From Planctomycetota bacterium (GTDB lineage Bacteria > Planctomycetota > Phycisphaerae > Phycisphaerales > UBA1924): a stretch of 64,000 nt of DNA. Made by a program: the position numbers and the translations under genes. The notes beneath the pieces were generated by a model. That model had not been told where the DNA came from and searched no databases. It was given only the letters and a program-made list of their open reading frames with translations. Location: assembly GCA_038525225.1 (NCBI GenBank), contig JBCBHW010000002.1:488007-552006 (forward strand), given 5' to 3'. Positions 29,654-40,668 of the stretch are shown here, in pieces (the first letter of the stretch is position 1; each line of letters starts with the position of its first letter).

Positions 29654-31060
<1,407 letters not shown>

Positions 31061-31186
31061 CGGGGGCCTCCTGCGGCGAGCAGCCGCTTCGAATGGGGAG
31101 AATCGTAGCGCGGCCCGGCGGGTATCCTGAAACCGAACGCTGCGGTTCCGGAACAAGTCTGGTAGGCAAAGAGCGGGGAGAAACAT

Positions 31187-32815
31187 ATGGGTCTTACGTC
31201 CATCGTCATCGGCTTGGTGCTCGCGGTCATGGTGCTGTCGCTGATCGCCAAGGTCACGAACCAGGGTCTGCGCGCGGCGATCGCGGTCGCGGCGCTGCTC
31301 ATCATCGTCATCAGCGTGATCTTCTCGAGCATCCGCTACGTGTCGCCCAGCGAGGTCGGCATCGTCAAGAAGAACGCGTTCGGCAGCAAGCTGACCGGGG
31401 GCCGGATCGTCGCGACGGGCGGCGAGATGGGCATCCAGGCGGACGTGCTTAGCCCGGGCTGGCAGACGGGGTACTGGCCGATCATCTTTGATGTGTCGAC
31501 CGTGCCGCTGGTCGAGGTGCCGGCCGGGCAGGTGGGCCTCGTCGAAGCGCGCGACGGCGACCCGCTCGATCCCGGTCAGCTTTACGCGCCCGAGGTCGAC
31601 ACGGCCGAGTTCAAGAAGATGGTCGAGGATGCGAGCTATTTCCTTGCCAATGGCGGTAGAAAGGGCCCGCAGTCGAACGTGCTCACGCCTGGTAAGTACC
31701 GGGTGAACACCGAGCTGTTCAAGGTCGAGATGGTGGAAGCGACGGACGTTGCGAACGCGACCGTCGCGGTGCTGAAGGCCAACTTCGGCGCTCCGCCCAC
31801 CGTCACCAGTGGCGAATCGGGGACGGACCCTGTTACGCTCGCCGCGCAGGGGGAGAAGGGCGTGCGAGCCGTGCCTCTGCCGCCCGGCACATACCCGATC
31901 AACCCGAACGCGTTCGAAGTGACCAACGTTTCGACGCGTGAGACGATCCTGCGGTTTACGGCGGGCCAGGGCGTGCTGAACCAGACGCGGGGGCTGACGA
32001 GCAACACGGCCGTCGAGGAGCGAGAGATCACCGTGCGGACGAGCGACGGCTTCACGTTCCCGGTCGATGTCCGCGTCGAGTACAAGATCGAGCCCGACAA
32101 CGCGCCGGTGGTGGTCGCCAAGCTCGGCTCGGATGGCCAGCCGCTGCTGAGCAAGATGAATTCGGCCGTTCGGGCGATCTTCCGGAACAACGCGGAGAAC
32201 GTGAAAGCGCTCGACTACGTCAACCAGCGTTCGCAGCAGGAGAGCCAGTCGCTCGTGATGCTTCAGCAGGCGATGAGCGATCTGGGCGTGACGATCCTCG
32301 CGGTCCGCATCGGCGATGTCGGCAACGAGGACACGCTGGGCGAGCTGCTGACCACGCAGCGCGACCGCGAGATCGCGGTGCAGGAGCAGATCACGTTCCA
32401 GGAGCAGCAGCGGGCGGCCGAGCAGAAGAAGGCTCTGACCCGCACGCAGCAGGAGGCCGAGGAAGAGAAGCGGCTGGCGACGGCGCAGTACGAAGTCCAG
32501 ATCGCCGAGCAGGACAAGCAGAAGCAGATCATCGCGGCCGAGGCCGAGGCCGAGGCGATCCAGATCCGCGCCGAGGCGCAGGCGTCGGCCTACGAGCGGA
32601 TCGCGCTGCAGATCGGTGCGGGAAACGCAGCGCTGATCGAGGTCCTCAAGATCGTGGGCGAGCAGGCGATCGAGATCACGCCGCGGGTGATGGTATCAAA
32701 CACCGGCGGCGGCGAGTCGCCGGGTGATGCCGAGACGACAGCGCTCATCGGCACGATGCTGGACACCATGGTGAGCCGCGATGTGCCGCAGCGGTCGACG
32801 GCTTCGGCGGAGTAA
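31187..32815 (+). CDS. SPFH/band-7 (flotillin-like) membrane protein
   Basis: N-terminal TM helices, an SPFH core, then a long coiled-coil rich in EA/Q repeats. GGGGAG lies 6 nt upstream. Confidence 0.8.
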
Positions 32816-32912: not shown

Positions 32913-33848
32913 TCAGCGGGCCTGGTTGACCCAGCCGTAGGGCAGTGCGGACCGACCGGCGGGCACATTGTCACCCTGATCTGACCAAAGATTGTCCCAC
33001 TGGATGCGGTTGCCATTTCTTATGTCTTTGATCTTCACGTAGAAATCGTTGGCAGTAAAATCGCTAAAGTCATCCCAGACTTCTTCACCGCCAGGCCCGT
33101 CGGTCGGTTCAAAGATTTCAACAACGCCGTCGATCATCAGCAGATTGCCCCTGCCGCTGTGCCGCTGCGTGAACTGATCGTCGTTCGCCCACCGGCCGTC
33201 AAAGTCAATGGCACCGCCCTGTGGGACGCCGTTGTAGAAGAACGAGCTTTCTTCACCGAAGATAGGCAGTGTCCGCATGCTGAGTTCATTCGGCAGAAGA
33301 CGATCGATCTGTACCTGACTGAGCGTGCCGACAAAGTCTGGTGCGCTCTGCCCGTTGTGGCCTCCAGGCTCTCGGTTGAGCCTTCTCACAACCCACTGCT
33401 TCGACGTACGTGCCCCCTGAGCACCCTCAAGGAACGTAAAGTCGAAGTCGAGTTGGGCATTTTCGTTGGTGATGTTTGTCGTGGTGAAGTCTCGGCCGTC
33501 CGCCGACTGCCGCTTATTGGTCGGACACTCGGCTATTTCGTCGACATCTTCGACGTACTCGTACAGCGCACCCTGCCGGGGCTCTTCTCCGCTGCCAAAC
33601 CCGGGCTCGCCCTCGTCGTCGCCGATGCGGTTCCAGGTGTACGCGTCCCAGATCTGGTCCTTGTGATCGTTCGCGTAGAGGGCCGTGGCCTGCCCGATGC
33701 CGCGGAGGCGTGTCTGGCAGATGGTGTTCTGTGCCGTGGCGCGGGCCTTGCCGAGCGCAGGCAGGAGGATGCCGATGAGCAGCGCGATGATCGCGATGAC
33801 GACGAGAAGTTCGATGAGCGTAAAGCCGCGGCGGGTCGATCTGGGCAT
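32913..33848 (-). CDS. DUF1559 (H-X9-DG) protein with prepilin-type N-terminal cleavage/methylation domain
   Basis: ORF trimmed to [24 protein letters not shown] (ATG at 33848). AGGAG lies 6 nt upstream. C-terminal ...[14 protein letters not shown]. Confidence 0.8.
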
Positions 33849-33983
33849 GTCCAACTCCTGAATCTCACAGCACGAGCGATTGTGCGCAAAAGCATACAAC
33901 CCCTACAAGACATATGGAAGTGGTTTTCGACTCAGAATGACGACGTCTTGACGGCTAACCCGTTGCAGGGGCCGCAAATAGGG

Positions 33984-34036: not shown

Positions 34037-34864
34037 TCAGCGGGCGGAATTGAACTCGCCATAGGCCGTGAACCGGTTGTTGAACGAGTTGTCGAACACC
34101 AGCCGGCCGGCGGTATCGTCGATCCGAAAGTAGATGTCGTTGGCTCTGAAATCGGACCGGTTCAGCGTTTCCTCGTCATCGTCCGGGTTGAAGTCGAAGG
34201 CCTCGACGACGCCGTCGATCATCGCCATGTGGCCCCTGCCCTGATGCCGCTGCGTGAGCTGGTCGTTGTTGCCCCACCGGCCGTCGGTGGTGGAGTCGTT
34301 GAACCAGAACGTGCTCTCTTCAATGAACACGGGCATGGTGCGGAGGCGCTTGTCGGCGAGCAGGTTGTCGGCCGCGGAGGGAAGCAGGAAGTTCGGAGGG
34401 TTGTTGCCGGTGTACTTCGTGCGGTCGAGCCGGTAGACGTTCCACTGCTTGGCGACGTCGGCCCCGTTCGAGGCCTCGAACATGGTGAAATCAAAGTCGA
34501 CGCCGAGCTCGAGGTTGTCGAACAGGTCGCTGCTGTCGCGGCCGTCGCGCGAGCGGCGTTTGTTCTTCGGGCACGCCATGACCTCGCTGACGTTTTCGAC
34601 GTAGTCCCAGATCGCGCCGGGCTCGGGGTCTCGGCGTGGCCGATCGATGCGTGCCCAGCTGCCGGCCTCCCAGATCTTGCCCTTATGGTCGTTGGCGTAG
34701 ACATTGGTCGCAAGCGCGGCCTGGCGGAGCCGGGCGGCGCAAATCGTGGTCAGGCCCGACTCCCGCGCCGAGCTGAGCGCCGGCAGCAGGATGCCGATGA
34801 GCAGCGCGATGATTGAGATCACCACCAGGACTTCGATCAGTGTGAATGCCGAACGGCGGGGCAT
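34037..34864 (-). CDS. DUF1559 (H-X9-DG) protein with prepilin-type N-terminal domain, paralog 2
   Basis: MPRRSAFTLIEVLVVISIIALL. C-terminal ...QRHQGRGHMAMIDG. Confidence 0.8.
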   Translation of the reverse strand: MPRRSAFTLIEVLVVISIIALLIGILLPALSSARESGLTTICAARLRQAALATNVYANDHKGKIWEAGSWARIDRPRRDPEPGAIWDYVENVSEVMACPKNKRRSRDGRDSSDLFDNLELGVDFDFTMFEASNGADVAKQWNVYRLDRTKYTGNNPPNFLLPSAADNLLADKRLRTMPVFIEESTFWFNDSTTDGRWGNNDQLTQRHQGRGHMAMIDGVVEAFDFNPDDDEETLNRSDFRANDIYFRIDDTAGRLVFDNSFNNRFTAYGEFNSAR

Positions 34865-34997: not shown

Positions 34998-36164
34998 GTG
35001 ATGTCCGATACCGGCCAACCCGACCGACTGCCCCATCCGTTATCGGTGACGTGCGAGTCGTGGTCGGACGCTTGCCGGCATCACCGCGGCGGCCGGCAGT
35101 GGGCGACGAAGGCGTACAAGAAGCTGTTCCGCGCCGCTGACAGCTCCGAGCTGGTCGAGCCGTGGCGCGGTTTCGACCCGTTCCTGCCGGTCGTGGGCGA
35201 GCAGGTCTCGCCCAGCGACGGGCCCGAGGGCGACACGGTCAAGATCCTGACCGAGATCGATGCGTACGCCGGCGGTCGCACGGCCGCCGAGCGCGATGCC
35301 GCGGCACACGGCCGAACGCTGCCCGTGGAGTCCGTCGTCATCCCGATGATCGGGCGCAAGGGCGAGCTGACGTACACGCTGTGCGTCTCGAGCCAGGTCG
35401 GCTGCGCGATGGGGTGCGGGTTCTGCGAGACGGCGCAGATGGGGCACGTGAAGAACCTGCGTGCCGAACAGATCGTCGCGCAGTGGTTCACCGCGCAGCA
35501 CGGCCACGGCGCGACGCACGGCAAGCGCATCAAGAACATCGTCTTCATGGGCATGGGAGAGCCCTTGGACAACGCCGACAACGTGATCCGGGCGATCGGC
35601 GTGCTCAACGACCGCTCGGCGGCGAACATCGGCATGCGGTGCATCACCGTGAGCACGGTCGGCCGGGTCGACGGCATCCGCAAGCTCCGCAGGCAGTGCG
35701 AGCAGCACGGCTGGCGAAGGCTGGGCATTGCGATCAGCGTGAACGCGCCGAACGACGAGATCCGTGACACCATCATGCCGATCAACCGCAAGTGGAACAT
35801 GGCCGAGCTGCGCGAGAGCCTGATCGGTTTCCCACGGTCGGGCCAGAACCGGATCATGATCGAGTACGTGCTGATCCCGGGCGTGAACGACCGCCTCGAG
35901 CACGCGGACGAGCTCGCGGACTACGTCTCGCCGCTGCTGTGCGCGGTGAACGTGATCCCGTACAACCCGCGGCGTGACTCGCCGTGGCCCGCGCCCGAAG
36001 AGTGGGCGGTGGACGCGTTCGTCGAGCGGCTGCGCTCGCGGAAGGTGTTTACCAAGCGGCGCAAGACCAAGGGACGGGACCAGATGGCGGCGTGCGGGCA
36101 GCTTGGGACCGAGCACATCCGCGGGCGGAAGCTTGTGGGCGTGACAACCAACGCGAGCGAGTAG
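34998..36164 (+). CDS. rlmN: 23S rRNA (adenine2503-C2)-methyltransferase / tRNA m2A37 methyltransferase (radical SAM)
   Basis: Radical-SAM cluster motif CVSSQVGCAMGCGFCET. C-terminal ...DQMAACGQL typical of RlmN/Cfr. Confidence 0.85.
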   Translation: MMSDTGQPDRLPHPLSVTCESWSDACRHHRGGRQWATKAYKKLFRAADSSELVEPWRGFDPFLPVVGEQVSPSDGPEGDTVKILTEIDAYAGGRTAAERDAAAHGRTLPVESVVIPMIGRKGELTYTLCVSSQVGCAMGCGFCETAQMGHVKNLRAEQIVAQWFTAQHGHGATHGKRIKNIVFMGMGEPLDNADNVIRAIGVLNDRSAANIGMRCITVSTVGRVDGIRKLRRQCEQHGWRRLGIAISVNAPNDEIRDTIMPINRKWNMAELRESLIGFPRSGQNRIMIEYVLIPGVNDRLEHADELADYVSPLLCAVNVIPYNPRRDSPWPAPEEWAVDAFVERLRSRKVFTKRRKTKGRDQMAACGQLGTEHIRGRKLVGVTTNASE

Positions 36165-36165
36165 G

Positions 36166-38661
36166 GTGGCGAGGCGTCGAGGCTGGGTCTGGTCGATCGT
36201 TGTGTGCTTCTATCTCGTTGGGCTTGTGCTCACGAGCCATGCCAACACGGCATCGCGCAAGGGCAACCGCCAGCCGATGCAGACGTTCGTCGACGCTGGG
36301 CGCGCCGTGTGGCTGCCGCCCATGACGAGCGAGGGCCCCGTCGATGGACTCGAGCAGAGCGCGCGGCTCGGACAGTCCTTTCAATCGTGGGGCGACCAAC
36401 GCGGGATCGCACCGGTCATCCTGCTGCACGGATCTCCCGGTGGATACCAGAACTTCGTCGGCTCGCGGTCTCGCCCCGGACTCGGCGAACTCGTTGCCGA
36501 AGGCCGTCGATCGTTCGCGCTCGATCTGCCCGGCATGGGCCTGAGCCGCCGAGATCCGCCGACGTGGTCGGCGCGATCTCACGCGCATGCCGTGCTGGCG
36601 TTTATGGATGAAATGGGCGTAAAGCGTGCGCACATCGTCGGCTGGTCGAACGGCGGCGCAGTGGCGCTCAATATGGCGGATATCGACGCCGATCGGGTCG
36701 CATCGATTGTCATGCTCGGCTCGGTCGGAGCCCAGGAGACGGAAGGGTCGGGCAGCTACTGGTTCGAGCAAGCGAAATACGAGATTGGCATCGGCGCGAC
36801 GCACGTTGCAGAGCGACTGCTGCCGCACTTCGGCCTGCTCGATCTGCGTGATCTTCGGCGTGGGCTTCGCAACTTCGATGACACCGACCAGCGGCCGCTG
36901 GCGGGCATCATGCGCGAGCTTGCCACGCCCACGCTAATCCTGCACGGGCGGAATGACTTTCTGGTTGCTGACTGGGCGGCCGAGTATCACCACGAGCTGA
37001 TGCCGACCTCGACGCTCGTCATAACCGACGACGATCATTTCATGCCGTTCCTGGCGGCGGAAGAGACGGCCCAGCACATCGGCGCGTTCATCGAGCGGTT
37101 CGATGACCCGGCGGCGGTGGCCGAACGCGCGACCGTGGATCTCGCGCCGCGGGTCAAGCCGTTTGGTGATGCGGGCGATGCGGCGCTGCATTGGCTGCAC
37201 TTTGCGCCGGTGTTGCTGGTGCTTCCGCTGGTGACGCTGGTGGGCTGGGTGCGGCCCGGTCGTGCGTGGGTGGCCGTGTTGGTCGGCGCAACAGAGCTCG
37301 ACATCGGTGTCGCATGGCTTGGCCTCGCGGTCGGAGAGGGCGTGCGAGCTGTGCGGCATGGGCGCGGGCAGAAGGTCTCCGCCTGGCTTGGATTGCTCGT
37401 GCGGCCTCTTGCAGCGCTCGGGCTTGGGTTTGTGTTTGTGCAGCTTGTGGCGAGGCCCGTGATCCGGCTCGGCCCAGACTGGGCGCATGGCATTGGCTGG
37501 CTGCTCGCCGTCGCTGTGCTTGTGATAGTGATGCGCGCGCTGCCGGTGCTGGTGCGCAACATCTGGACGATGCGCGGTCGGCAGCGGTTGCGGGCTTCGG
37601 TCGCTCGTCTTCTGCACCACGAGTGGTGGCCAAGTTGGGCGTTGTACCTGCCGCTTGTGCCGTGGTTCGTTTGGCAAAGCGTGAAGCACCGGCACCCGCT
37701 CGTGTTCACCGCGTGCAACCCGGGGATCGCCAACGGCGGCGGGCTCGCGGGCGAGAGCAAGAGCGAGATCCTGGACGGCCTGCTCGCGTCGGGCGACCGG
37801 CGCGTGCTGTTCGGCGTGCGGCTGCCGAATGACGGAACGCCCGAAGAACGAACGGCATGGCTGATGCAGCAACTCGACGACGAGCCTCGGCTCGGCGGGC
37901 TGCCGATCGTGATGAAGCCCGACGCGGGCGAGCAGGGGCGAGGGATCAAGGTCTGCCGATCGCGCGAAGATATCGAACGATTGGTTGCGGATACATCCGG
38001 TCCGATTCTGGCGCAGCGGCTCAGTGATCGGCCGAACGAGGTCGGGGTGTTCTTTGTGTGCGACAGTGCGGCCGGGCGGGTGTTCTCCGTCACACGCAAG
38101 GTCTTTCCCGTGCTGACTGGCGACGGAAAGCGAACCCTCGAACAGCTTGTCTGGCGACACAAAAGATTCCGAGGCCAAGCCGAGACGTTTCTCGAGCGGT
38201 TTGCCGATCGGCGAGACGAGGTACTCGACGACGCTGAAGAACTCGTCCTGTCATGGGCGGGGAACCACCGGCAGGGCTGTCAGTTTCGGAATGCACCGGA
38301 GCTGATGACGCCGGGTCTTGAGCGGGCAATTTGTGAGATCGCCGATGGCTTCGCAGGGGTCAACGGCGGCGGGCTCGATTTCGGTCGCTTCGATCTGCGG
38401 TACGACCACGAGGACGCGCTCGCGGCGGGCGAGTTCGATGTGATCGAGGTCAACGGCACGTCGAGCGAGTCGACCACGATCTACGACCCGCGCAGATCGC
38501 CGTGGTTCGCCTGGCGGACGCTGATGCGGCAATGGTCGATCGCGTATGCGATCGGAGCACGCAACCGCGAAGCGGGGTACAAGCCGTTGTCGTTCGTTCA
38601 GGCGCTTCGGCTGGTGCGCGCGCATCTCCGCGAGCGCGAGTCGCTGGGCGCGAGCAGCTAG
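36166..38661 (+). CDS. tri-domain membrane protein: N-terminal signal/TM + alpha/beta-hydrolase, central polytopic membrane segment, C-terminal ATP-grasp ligase domain
   Basis: GTG start 1 nt after the rlmN stop. Residues ~60-300 carry the alpha/beta-hydrolase nucleophile elbow HIVGWSNGGAVA. Residues ~330-510 form several hydrophobic helices. Residues ~560-800 are ATP-grasp-like (LPIVMKPDAGEQGRGIKV ... FDVIEVNGTSSEST). Confidence 0.7.
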   Translation: MARRRGWVWSIVVCFYLVGLVLTSHANTASRKGNRQPMQTFVDAGRAVWLPPMTSEGPVDGLEQSARLGQSFQSWGDQRGIAPVILLHGSPGGYQNFVGSRSRPGLGELVAEGRRSFALDLPGMGLSRRDPPTWSARSHAHAVLAFMDEMGVKRAHIVGWSNGGAVALNMADIDADRVASIVMLGSVGAQETEGSGSYWFEQAKYEIGIGATHVAERLLPHFGLLDLRDLRRGLRNFDDTDQRPLAGIMRELATPTLILHGRNDFLVADWAAEYHHELMPTSTLVITDDDHFMPFLAAEETAQHIGAFIERFDDPAAVAERATVDLAPRVKPFGDAGDAALHWLHFAPVLLVLPLVTLVGWVRPGRAWVAVLVGATELDIGVAWLGLAVGEGVRAVRHGRGQKVSAWLGLLVRPLAALGLGFVFVQLVARPVIRLGPDWAHGIGWLLAVAVLVIVMRALPVLVRNIWTMRGRQRLRASVARLLHHEWWPSWALYLPLVPWFVWQSVKHRHPLVFTACNPGIANGGGLAGESKSEILDGLLASGDRRVLFGVRLPNDGTPEERTAWLMQQLDDEPRLGGLPIVMKPDAGEQGRGIKVCRSREDIERLVADTSGPILAQRLSDRPNEVGVFFVCDSAAGRVFSVTRKVFPVLTGDGKRTLEQLVWRHKRFRGQAETFLERFADRRDEVLDDAEELVLSWAGNHRQGCQFRNAPELMTPGLERAICEIADGFAGVNGGGLDFGRFDLRYDHEDALAAGEFDVIEVNGTSSESTTIYDPRRSPWFAWRTLMRQWSIAYAIGARNREAGYKPLSFVQALRLVRAHLRERESLGASS

Positions 38662-39686
38662 TCGCTTGGGGCTCCGAGGATACGGAGCTTGAGCTCGTCG
38701 CCGGCGATCGCGATGCGGGAGCCGTCGTCGCTCGCGGCGATCGCGCGGACCTTGCCCGCGTCGGCTTCGTACATGCTCGTTTCGGCGTGGCCTGCGATCG
38801 GGAGGACGGCAACGCGTCGGCCGCTGTCAGCGATAAGGACGCGGTCTTTGCCGCAGAGGCACGCGTGCGCGGGCTGGGCCGGGGCCTTAAAGCTGCCGAC
38901 GGTTGCGCGGCGTTCGGCGTCCCAGACGGTGAAGGTCTTTGACGCGTCGTAGGTGGCGATGCGGTTGGCGTCGAGCTGGATCATGCCGCGGATCGCCGAG
39001 CGCGTTGGGCGTTGGCTCGCGCCGGGTTTGTCGAGTGTCTCATCGAGCAGCAGCAGCTTGTTTGCCCCTGCGACGATGAGCGAGCCGGCGGCGAAGGCGA
39101 GCCGGGAGCGGTCGTCGGCTGGCACGCTCCATTTGCGGATAACCTCGCCCGTGAGCAGGTCGTACAGCGTGACGGTGTGATCGGCGGCGAGTGTGGCGAC
39201 GCGGCCCAGCGTGGCGTCGACGACGGCGTGCCGGATGGGTGACGCCGTCTCGCCGGCTTTGGTTGCCGCGGTGATCAGGCCGCCCAGCGGGACAACGACG
39301 GCGACCAGTTCCCTCGCGACCTTTACGGTATTGCCGACCGTCTTCACGAGACCCGTCGGTGACTGCGCCGACTCGAGCAGCGCCTGGACCGTGGTGAACC
39401 GGCCTGTTTCTTCGCTCGATTCGAGATCAACCAGCCGGGCGCTGCCGTCTTCGGCGGCGAACAGGACCCCCTGCTGGTCGGGCCAGAAGCACGCGTACCG
39501 AACGGCGGCGTTGTGGCGGTAGAGCGCGGCCTCGGCGGACTCTTCGCCGAAGACGGTCCAGACCGCGATCGCGCCGTCGCGCCCCGATGACAGCACGACG
39601 TCGTTGCGTCCCGGCGCGAACGCGACGCTCGTGATGCGGTCGCGGTGGCCCGAGAGCGTGGCGATGTCGTGCAGGTCGGTTGGCAT
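38658..39686 (-). CDS. WD40-repeat protein
   Basis: C-terminal part of ORF 38658..40529. Repeated ...SGHRDRITSVAFAP.../...VTLYDL.../...FTVWDA... blades. The start is uncertain (ATG at 39686, or ATG at 39785 which would overlap pdxH by 28 nt). Confidence 0.55.
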   Translation of the reverse strand: MPTDLHDIATLSGHRDRITSVAFAPGRNDVVLSSGRDGAIAVWTVFGEESAEAALYRHNAAVRYACFWPDQQGVLFAAEDGSARLVDLESSEETGRFTTVQALLESAQSPTGLVKTVGNTVKVARELVAVVVPLGGLITAATKAGETASPIRHAVVDATLGRVATLAADHTVTLYDLLTGEVIRKWSVPADDRSRLAFAAGSLIVAGANKLLLLDETLDKPGASQRPTRSAIRGMIQLDANRIATYDASKTFTVWDAERRATVGSFKAPAQPAHACLCGKDRVLIADSGRRVAVLPIAGHAETSMYEADAGKVRAIAASDDGSRIAIAGDELKLRILGAPSD

Positions 39687-39757
39687 GCGCTTGGAAACTC
39701 GCAGCGAGGCTCGGTCCTGATCGCGGTACTCGGGCACATCCGAGTCCGACTTCAGCG

Positions 39758-40507
39758 TCAAGGCTGAAGTCTCGTGCGGGCCCATGACCCGCCCGCGAAG
39801 CCGTCGCCCGCGGGTGTGAGTTCGCGGGTCCATTCCGCGCGGTCGTGGAACCGGCCCTTGCCGCCGATCCAGAGCTCGACGCGCTGGGCCCAGATCCGGA
39901 AGCCCCCCCAGTGCGGCGGGCGTGGGATGGTGATGCCGTCGCCCGGCTCTTCGCCGGCGACGACGCTCATGGGGACGCCGAAGCGGTCGAGCACATCGCT
40001 GTACTGTTCGAGGAGCTGCTCGCGCGTCTCGACGGGCCGGGACTGGTTGCTGGCCCACGCGCCGAGGCGTTTGAGGATGTGCCTGCTGTTGAAGTAGGCG
40101 TCGCTCTCCTCGGCCGGGCTCTGGGTCACGGGGCCCTCGATGCGGACTTGACGGTCGAGGGCGTCCCAGTGGAAGCAGGCCGCGGCGACAGGCTTGGCCC
40201 GGAGCTGGCTGCCCTTGCCGCCCTCGTAGTTCGTGTAGAACACGACCCTGCCGGTCTCGGAATCGGAGTCGGTCTGGTAGCTCTTGCAGAGCACGATTCG
40301 GCTGGACGGTGTGCCGTCGGCCTTGAGCGTGGCAACGTTCATGGCGTTGGGGTTGTCGGTGATCGGCCCGCCGTCCGGGCCGGCGGTGTGGGCGTCGGTC
40401 CACCACTGTTTGAAGATGTCCCACGGGTGTTCGGGGAGCGATTCGGGCAGGGTGCCGCCCTCGGCGAAGGGGTCGTCGGCGACGGTGATGGGCGTGCGTT
40501 CGGGCAT
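39758..40507 (-). CDS. pdxH: pyridoxamine 5'-phosphate oxidase
   Basis: RIVLCKSYQTDS...GRVVFYTNYEGGKGSQL and C-terminal WGGFRIW. Confidence 0.85.
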   Translation of the reverse strand: MPERTPITVADDPFAEGGTLPESLPEHPWDIFKQWWTDAHTAGPDGGPITDNPNAMNVATLKADGTPSSRIVLCKSYQTDSDSETGRVVFYTNYEGGKGSQLRAKPVAAACFHWDALDRQVRIEGPVTQSPAEESDAYFNSRHILKRLGAWASNQSRPVETREQLLEQYSDVLDRFGVPMSVVAGEEPGDGITIPRPPHWGGFRIWAQRVELWIGGKGRFHDRAEWTRELTPAGDGFAGGSWARTRLQP

Positions 40508-40668
40508 AGCGAATGGTACGACGGTTCACGAGGGGTGGATGTTCTGTGGATTGCCGCGAACGAGGCGGGGAACCGACAACAAAGTCGGCAGATCACGACA
40601 GATGCGGGGATGGGTCGGTGTGGGCGTGAGTACGCTGAAGGTCTACCCGAGCGCACGGAGGCAGGGGC

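Follow-up and report, generated by a model that had tools for sequence, protein, structure and literature searches.

MprF-type systems unite a cytoplasmic modifying enzyme, a translocating membrane module and a periplasmic lipid hydrolase. MprF itself combines a tRNA-dependent DUF2156/GNAT domain with the MprF flippase, and its periplasmic counterparts are hydrolases of the AcvB or PA0919 type. DedA proteins are nearly universal, and their cargo is known for few of them: undecaprenyl phosphate and, for the eukaryotic homologues, phospholipids. Here we describe a gene located in a 64,000-nucleotide stretch of DNA from a Planctomycetota bacterium (GCA_038525225.1, contig JBCBHW010000002.1, positions 488,007 to 552,006 of the forward strand; hereafter the window). 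The gene encodes an 831-residue protein in which a predicted periplasmic alpha/beta-hydrolase, a membrane core that is a degenerate DedA domain and a predicted cytoplasmic ATP-grasp ligase are joined. Comparison with MprF and its hydrolases is by analogy only: the logic of a head-group module, a lipid-translocating module and a hydrolase is shared, but ATP-grasp and DedA parts stand in place of the GNAT domain and the flippase, and the hydrolase is fused. The genes found next to relatives of this gene suggest that the ligase may act on the head group of an ornithine-type aminolipid, in conjunction with a periplasmic lipid esterase, a reading that we hold tentatively and rate at somewhat less than an even chance.

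The individual parts have well-described relatives. The VTT core of DedA proteins (E. coli YqjA and YghB, B. subtilis UptA, eukaryotic TMEM41B and VMP1) is also found in ~540-residue and ~900-residue relatives of the window protein. Known bacterial DedA proteins are ~90-99% single-domain, depending on the subfamily (bioRxiv 10.1101/2023.01.04.522824); in contrast, the family described here bears a cytoplasmic ATP-grasp domain and, in many lineages, a periplasmic hydrolase as well. PlaF of P. aeruginosa and ABHD6 likewise have a single N-terminal anchor helix followed by a membrane-surface alpha/beta-hydrolase, but are without further membrane or ligase domains. This likeness is generic to the fold, as many esterases score equally well. 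The nearest relatives of the ligase by sequence and fold are RimK, LysX/ArgX, the G domain of cyanophycin synthetase and Ddl, from which the family differs in that its ligase is covalently joined to a membrane transporter domain. Synthesis of ornithine lipid by OlsH and OlsI was demonstrated in 2025 for the planctomycete Singulisphaera acidiphila, with OlsH using ATP and a free fatty acid to form an amide and OlsI serving as O-acyltransferase; ATP-grasp, DedA, TANGO2 and DinB proteins are not mentioned in that paper (PMC12493201). By superfamily, the window protein belongs with the alpha/beta-hydrolases and the ATP-grasp enzymes, and it descends, in degenerate form, from DedA; it is neither an MprF nor a cyanophycin synthetase nor one of the Ols enzymes.

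Architecture of the fused protein

The gene and its parts are as follows, with coordinates referring to the window:

36166..38661, plus strand: whole gene, 831 residues, GTG start, TGA stop counted in
36181..36243, plus strand: N-terminal signal-anchor helix, residues 6-26, after MARRR; predicted N-in and uncleaved; Kyte-Doolittle (KD) hydropathy 1.89
36298..37140, plus strand: alpha/beta-hydrolase domain, residues ~45-325, with a cap at residues ~190-255 (Pfam, conservation, Foldseek); predicted periplasmic
37165..37566, plus strand: membrane core, residues 334-467, a DedA/VTT remnant (hydropathy, AlphaFold2, alignment, profile comparison)
37570..37686, plus strand: juxtamembrane module, residues 469-507, consisting of an Arg-rich amphipathic helix (469-483) and a hydrophobic helix (490-507)
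37693..38580, plus strand: ATP-grasp ligase domain, residues ~510-805, predicted cytoplasmic, without the usual Rossmann-like N-domain

The gene is real and the fusion genuine. Gene calls of four independent assemblies include a protein of 100% identity (P0001), flanked by the same neighbours, and more than 466 full-length homologues were found. A scan of GTDB, with one genome per species, detected relatives in at least 553 species genomes, nearly all of them metagenome-assembled genomes of Phycisphaerae and other Planctomycetota. This recurrence across assemblies and species rules out an assembly artefact or a chimeric open reading frame (ORF), a concern raised along with the original prediction. 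The three-part order of hydrolase, membrane part and ATP-grasp domain which that prediction described is indeed present, and the sequences quoted in it were recovered: GWSNGG at residues 159-164, KPDAGEQGRGIKV at residues 584-596 and FDVIEVNGTSSE at residues 757-768. Antisense ORFs overlapping the gene (36934-38178, 37035-38162 and 36049-36828, all on the minus strand and up to 414 residues long) were rejected as genes. Note that similar antisense ORFs recur as apparently "conserved" clusters in related loci because of the high G+C content and the conservation of the sense gene.

Hydropathy analysis placed transmembrane (TM) segments at residues 6-24, 344-362, 369-387, 410-428 and 445-463, in addition to the hydrophobic helix at 490-507. 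A full-length AlphaFold2 model based on 73 homologues reached a pLDDT of 94.1 and a pTM of 0.83, and contained an unbroken helix at the N-terminus (residues 2-33). Among the 73 homologues with a fused hydrolase, 56 have a hydrophobic N-terminal segment with a KD value of at least 1.6.

The hydrolase domain was assigned by Pfam with Abhydrolase_1 (PF00561; E = 4.8e-21, 76 bits against a cutoff of 25.8) and Abhydrolase_6 (PF12697; E = 1.2e-16, 62.5 bits, above the cutoff), which together cover residues 83-303. Its fold, the GWSNG nucleophile elbow (G-x-S-x-G) and a Ser-Asp-His triad identify it as a member of the alpha/beta-hydrolase fold. The nucleophile Ser161 (nucleotides 36646-36648), Asp264 and His291 are invariant in the 73 homologues, as is a family-specific motif of the cap. 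When Foldseek was run with the full-length model, alpha/beta-hydrolase matches crowded out the other domains. These matches included esterases (many at probability 1.0), meta-cleavage product (MCP) and C-C hydrolases, PlaF (6i8w) and ABHD6 (7ots), with none being prominent. A duplication of OlsI as the origin of the fused hydrolase was not supported, the identity to OlsI-type hydrolases being a generic 22-26%. Some family members are much longer: one of 1294 residues (P0030) contains two alpha/beta-hydrolase stretches in tandem ahead of the membrane core, and others comprise a ~1247-residue ORF (L060) and representatives of 1000-1130 residues.

No Pfam or NCBIfam model reached its cutoff on the C-terminus, explaining why the public annotation reads only "alpha/beta fold hydrolase". 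Searches with the single C-terminal sequence returned nothing from Pfam, a match at E ~1e-3 from NCBIfam and one at E = 0.036 with phmmer against the PDB. A profile of 22 sequences (residues 470-831) matched the G domain of cyanophycin synthetase (E = 1.2e-7) and a RimK-domain protein (E = 1.7e-5) in the PDB, as well as Ddl, GshAB and biotin carboxylases. The Pfam models RimK and CPSase_L_D2 were touched by 12 of the 22 family members, and the close structural neighbours of the ligase include Ddl and VanA. The family profile and the structure model together settled the assignment of the C-terminus as ATP-grasp, as originally proposed, with the fold, in which a central and a C-terminal domain enclose ATP, the lysine and the metal residues all present. 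A GNAT or DUF2156 domain, the alternative considered at that time, gave no match in Pfam or NCBIfam at E ≤ 0.01.

The key residues of the ligase are K584, R741, D743, R745, E761 and N763. K584 is the invariant ATP-binding lysine, and the metal site is formed by R741-x-D743 and E761-x-N763; K584, R741, D743, E761 and N763 are invariant both in the 73 and in the 22 homologues. In the alignment, the ligase residues coincide with KP and ExN of cyanophycin synthetase. CphA1 is an enzyme of ~870-930 residues consisting of N, G (ATP-grasp) and M (Mur-ligase-like) domains. Only its G-domain region aligns (chain residues 236-452), whereas N and M domains are absent here, and the NCBIfam model for cyanophycin synthetase scored 16 bits on the window protein against a cutoff of 850.

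A Rossmann-like domain preceding the ATP-grasp fold was not found. Only ~45 residues (510-555) precede the central domain, and the PDB matches begin at profile position ~74-100. The position normally taken by the N-domain of ATP-grasp enzymes is occupied by the membrane-associated helices and by the loop NPGxxxGGGxxGESK (residues 518-532), which is invariant in every form of the family. Short, long and hydrolase-less forms all share the juxtamembrane module, whose hydrophobic helix contains the conserved motif HHEWWP, in which E486 and W488 are invariant. Sequence and model suggest that these helices tether the ligase to the membrane surface.

Membrane core and topology

In ~900-residue relatives, a genuine VTT/DedA domain is located between hydrolase and ligase. 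PF09335 matches at E = 1e-13 to 1e-16 were obtained for relatives of ~900 and ~540 residues (P0052, P0074, P0108, L061, L077 and L078). The membrane core of the window protein consists of a helix pair (349-359/363-374), equivalent to the first re-entrant hairpin, and of TM helices at 380-397, 404-435 and 438-467; its Asp379 is invariant. A hidden Markov model (HMM) of the long-form membrane region matched short forms over its positions 4-68 and 144-199 (of 199), as two collinear blocks. Although hmmsearch with this HMM retrieved other short forms and not the window protein, which is too diverged for it, hhalign of a short-form profile, with the window protein as master, against the long-form VTT profile gave a probability of 97.1% and E = 5.7e-11 over residues 341-393. 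The window protein retains the first hairpin, TM2 and the last two TM helices of the VTT domain. In the alignment, RPGR takes the place of the acidic S-E-D at the tip of the first re-entrant hairpin, and about 41-75 residues are deleted, including the GRxxG loop, a cytoplasmic helix and the second hairpin with R-x5-R, the helix and this hairpin amounting to ~60-75 residues. The long forms, in contrast, keep the acidic tip, equivalent to E39/D51, and the R-x5-R hairpin, equivalent to R130/R136. These comparisons indicate that the core is, by descent, a truncated and degenerate DedA domain, an addition to the earlier three-part description.

The best NCBIfam match of the intact VTT domains is UptA, the undecaprenyl-phosphate transporter (E = 2e-12 and 9e-12), which would be in line with a polyprenyl-phosphate-linked precursor such as Lipid II or another undecaprenyl-phosphate intermediate as the substrate. 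The ligase would then add an amino acid to a carboxylate of the stem peptide or of a sugar acid, in the style of a D-aspartate ligase, while handling of undecaprenyl phosphate would fall to the DedA domain and the exported product would be the target of the hydrolase. The presence of Ddl and VanA among the structural neighbours of the ligase is consistent with this scheme, as is the R-x5-R motif of the long forms, which occurs in phosphate-binding COG0586 DedA proteins (bioRxiv 10.1101/2023.01.04.522824). However, the UptA match scores 47 bits, far under the cutoff of 250, and the Arg-bearing hairpin is lost in the window copy. Moreover, genes for peptidoglycan or glycan synthesis are not recurrent neighbours in the 82 related loci described below, whereas genes for aminolipid synthases do recur. 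We therefore consider a polyprenyl-linked substrate distinctly unlikely.

With an aminolipid-directed ligase and a periplasmic lipid esterase, as we prefer, the two enzymes would lie on opposite sides of the membrane. A cysteine-accessibility (SCAM) map of E. coli YqjA shows a cytoplasmic N-terminus followed by TM1, a first hairpin entering from the periplasm, a second hairpin entering from the cytoplasm and a cytoplasmic C-terminus (bioRxiv 10.1101/2021.10.18.464800). In the family, the insertion point of the hydrolase is directly ahead of the first hairpin, and that of the ligase is behind the last TM helix. Mapping of these insertion points onto the YqjA topology predicts a periplasmic hydrolase and a cytoplasmic ligase, the latter also being expected from its dependence on ATP. 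Across the 73 homologues, the net charge is +2.3 for the N-terminal tail, +2.8 for the TM2-TM3 loop and +4.6 after TM4, and the junctions predicted as periplasmic are either neutral or acidic. Note that a hairpin and two full passes of the first helix pair would give the same parity of crossings. In hydrolase-less members the first hairpin arm comes first, S/T-E-D lying 6-28 residues into the protein, and hydrolase-bearing members gained the signal-anchor helix along with the hydrolase, as fits the need of periplasmic insertion. The opposite-side topology of the original prediction is thus supported indirectly, by the homology to YqjA, the charge bias and the co-acquisition of the signal anchor.

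Family forms and linkage to aminolipid synthases

For the analysis of genomic context, ORFs were called and clustered in 82 related loci. The following forms were distinguished:

Type A (including the window): membrane region often short, 141-159 residues (156 in the window), and 200-224 residues in seven loci
Type B: long form, membrane region of 214-216 residues
Type C (Gemmata, Isosphaera and other Planctomycetia): ~540 residues, DedA and ATP-grasp domains without hydrolase

In type A, rlmN is located directly upstream (29 loci) and DnaB downstream. The genes upstream of type B encode an alpha/beta-hydrolase, a GH3 protein, a DinB_2-like protein and a TANGO2/NRDE protein (Cys2 Ntn type), the last overlapping the start of the fusion gene. 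Type C is preceded by DoxX-like, DinB-like and NRDE genes. No assembly is common to any two of 80 genome loci, suggesting one copy per genome and thus that the arrangements are orthologous rather than paralogous.

The hydrolase-less ~540-residue form accounts for 4257 matches, annotated only as DedA/VTT proteins. A library-wide profile search yielded 1451 cluster representatives at E ≤ 1e-30, with lengths clustering at ~350-400, 520-600, 800-940 and 1000-1130 residues. Hydrolase-fused forms prevail in Phycisphaerae loci, and most hydrolase-less forms are from other Planctomycetota, although a few loci outside the Phycisphaerae (for example L061 of Isosphaeraceae) also bear the hydrolase. From these comparisons we infer that the combination of DedA and ATP-grasp domains is the ancestral unit, and that hydrolase and signal anchor are a lineage-specific periplasmic addition.

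The genes adjoining long and hydrolase-less forms provide a functional clue. In locus L077 (5386-11592, plus strand), genes for DoxX, DinB, NRDE, the DedA-ATP-grasp protein, OlsI and OlsH follow one another on one strand with overlapping stops and starts. The GH3 protein of this locus scored 677.8 bits on the NCBIfam model "lyso-ornithine lipid synthetase OlsH", above the equivalog cutoff of 620 (the GH3 protein of L010 scored 370 bits), and its hydrolase scored 363 bits on the OlsI model against a cutoff of 385. OlsH-like and alpha/beta-hydrolase genes adjoin the long-form gene in ~19 Phycisphaerae loci (OlsH-like genes are linked in L001, L010, L011, L013-L016, L018, L028, L030, L042, L047, L068, L069, L071, L076 and L077). 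Among the best 120 of 1702 GH3 matches, the family contigs that also have a GH3 match carry the long form only. A gene for an OlsF-like bifunctional aminolipid synthase, matching over its full length at 365-417 bits, adjoins in L061, L079 and L082, and tblastn detected an OlsF-like gene also in L044 and L053. An operon of DoxX, DinB_2-like, TANGO2-NRDE (starting MCT...NRDE) and DedA-ATP-grasp genes is conserved in Planctomycetota; beyond L077 it was seen in L010 (2176-9083), L015, L079 and L082, adjoining OlsI/OlsH or OlsF-like genes.

In relatives, the DedA-ATP-grasp gene thus shares operons with OlsH/OlsI or OlsF genes. OlsH resembles the ligase in being an ATP-dependent amide-forming enzyme, but the window protein is homologous to neither OlsH nor OlsF, and its hydrolase is only generically like OlsI. 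The same module adjoins one aminolipid synthase system in some lineages and a second, non-homologous one in others, which appears to us the strongest clue to function. Together with the homology to DedA, this operon linkage strengthens the connection to membrane lipids that had been claimed at the outset.

The original prediction had envisaged a self-contained, reversible and ATP-driven modification of a membrane-lipid head group, taken here as that of phosphatidylglycerol, phosphatidylethanolamine or phosphatidylserine, in which the ATP-grasp domain installs an aminoacyl or amide group and the hydrolase removes it, similar to MprF. The placement of the hydrolase outside and the ligase inside is consistent with such a cycle, as are the conservation of both intact catalytic sites and the derivation of the membrane core from a lipid-transporter family, which parallels the flippase domain of MprF. 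However, the hydrolase is missing from the bulk of the family, the ~540-residue core with its 4257 matches. It is therefore a lineage-specific add-on and hydrolysis not an obligatory partner reaction, so that the term reversible is not supported. Nor is the term self-contained, given that relatives sit in a cluster of five to six genes. The three phospholipid head groups are not indicated as substrates: the clusters contain aminolipid synthases and not phospholipid genes, and the genomic evidence points to ornithine-type aminolipids. In addition, no similarity to DUF2156 or the MprF flippase was detected with Pfam or NCBIfam at E ≤ 0.01, and a synthase fused 1:1 to its own reverse enzyme would run a futile ATP cycle unless regulated. 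An MprF-like cycle, which the data support in part, thus seems unlikely.

The ligase might instead act on a soluble or protein substrate, either as a peptide or protein C-terminal ligase in the manner of RimK, LysX or cyanophycin synthetase or within a low-molecular-weight thiol or peptide pathway, with the three modules simply co-localised and the membrane part serving as an anchor or exporter. Indeed, the enzymes closest to it in sequence and fold all join amino acids to carboxylates of peptides or proteins, and the degenerate DedA core of the window protein would fit a pure anchor role. DinB-fold and Cys-Ntn proteins, both represented among the operon partners, occur in thiol and peptide pathways. 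On the other hand, the replacement of the substrate-binding N-domain by invariant juxtamembrane helices and the NPG...GESK loop speaks for a reaction that takes place on the surface of the membrane. The adjacency to non-homologous aminolipid synthases apparently arose independently in different lineages, and TANGO2 is reportedly tied to acyl-CoA and lipid metabolism (PMC11867700). In view of these points a soluble substrate appears improbable to us.

Returning to an aminolipid as the substrate, the window protein can be described, from its sequence, as a polytopic inner-membrane enzyme on a DedA/VTT scaffold in which the catalytic residues of hydrolase and ATP-grasp ligase are intact. The ligase would spend ATP on activating a carboxylate as acyl-phosphate; a plausible candidate is the free alpha-carboxylate of an acyloxyacyl ornithine-type aminolipid. 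This choice is made by analogy with LysX/ArgX, RimK and cyanophycin synthetase, which use macromolecule-bound carboxylates. Condensation of this intermediate with an amine would follow, at the membrane surface. Relatives whose DedA domain is intact would next move either this product or the aminolipid itself to the outer leaflet, where the lipid would be de-acylated, trans-acylated or trimmed by the periplasmic hydrolase. For the window protein, the degenerate translocation module may mainly be a scaffold that couples the cytoplasmic ligase to the periplasmic lipid esterase.

Several observations weigh against this proposal. Aminolipid synthase genes adjoin the family gene in only ~25 of the 82 loci, and tblastn found no homologues of OlsH, OlsI, OlsF, NRDE, DinB or DoxX in the 64-kb window. 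A solitary OlsH-like GH3 gene occurs in L083 (7043-12373, on a 4.6-Mb contig), with no DedA-ATP-grasp gene within 10 kb, indicating that linkage of OlsH to the module is lineage-dependent. Upstream of it, on the opposite strand, are a gene for the apolipoprotein N-acyltransferase Lnt and then a TsaD-family (PF00814) gene adjoining the GH3 gene, which is followed by a gene for a 200-residue protein. The partners DinB, DoxX and the Cys-Ntn TANGO2 homologue could indicate a different chemistry, and UptA as the best named DedA match makes a polyprenyl-linked substrate possible. As to the window protein itself, the Pfam search gave no PF09335 match at E ≤ 0.01, and with the acidic tip and the R-x5-R hairpin lost, translocation of lipid by this copy is doubtful.

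Neighbouring genes and implications

The surroundings of the gene in the window are as follows:

29654-31186, minus strand: AsnS
31187-32815, plus strand: SPFH/Band-7 domain protein, 542 residues, divergent from AsnS
32913-33899 and 34037-34864, minus strand: two tandem proteins with prepilin-type N-terminal methylation motif (328 and 275 residues)
34998..36164, plus strand: rlmN-like radical-SAM gene, directly upstream of the fusion gene
38658..~39761, minus strand: WD40 beta-propeller protein, ~367 residues (public gene call)
39758..40507, minus strand: pyridoxamine-5'-phosphate-oxidase-family protein, 249 residues (public gene call)

Together with DnaB, these are housekeeping neighbours. 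A mechanically called ORF of 623 residues at 38658-40529 (minus strand) corresponds to two genes in the public gene calls, the WD40 and oxidase genes listed above. The WD40 gene is convergent with the fusion gene, their 3' ends overlapping by 4 nucleotides. The rlmN-like gene scored 262.9 bits on TIGR00048 (RlmN) against a cutoff of 290, its first ~100 residues being diverged. As noted originally, its stop codon (TAG, ending at 36164) is separated by one base from the GTG start; no terminator-like site was seen between the two genes, and they are probably co-transcribed. In the 29 of 82 related loci with rlmN directly upstream, the gap or overlap is often a few bases. A functional coupling to rlmN was nevertheless rejected, as this adjacency falls in a wider syntenic block with AsnS, pilin-like genes and DnaB, and thus looks like conserved synteny. 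The same prepilin-type family recurs upstream of rlmN in many related loci, often duplicated.

We know of no ATP-grasp enzyme that modifies the head group of a membrane lipid. A literature search for links of ATP-grasp enzymes with DedA, of ATP-grasp enzymes with ornithine-lipid biosynthesis, or of TANGO2 with GH3 and ATP-grasp proteins retrieved nothing relevant. The enzyme could be categorically new if the ATP-grasp domain were shown to ligate onto a membrane lipid. In its fullest form, the proposal is that of a first ATP-grasp ligase acting directly on a membrane aminolipid, where it would activate the free carboxylate of an ornithine-type lipid and add an amine to give a dipeptide-like or otherwise extended head group, joined to a DedA translocator and, in the hydrolase-fused forms prevailing in Phycisphaerae, to a periplasmic remodelling esterase. 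With DoxX, DinB-like and TANGO2/NRDE proteins, it would constitute a new Planctomycetota module for aminolipid modification and trafficking. We consider this complete scheme possible but rather doubtful.

A DedA subfamily that is fused to an ATP-dependent ligase and linked to aminolipid synthases provides a concrete and testable hypothesis on cargo. It points to missing steps in the biology of ornithine lipids, such as extension of the head group, flipping to the outer leaflet or remodelling in the periplasm. If true, a DedA protein would have a cargo that is neither a phospholipid nor a polyprenyl lipid, and bacterial TANGO2 homologues would be placed in a lipid context. The presence of such a homologue in a lipid-synthesis operon may also be relevant to the acyl-CoA role that is under debate for human TANGO2. 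Across the family, thousands of database entries named "alpha/beta fold hydrolase" or "VTT domain-containing protein" conceal a ligase domain of ~330 residues.

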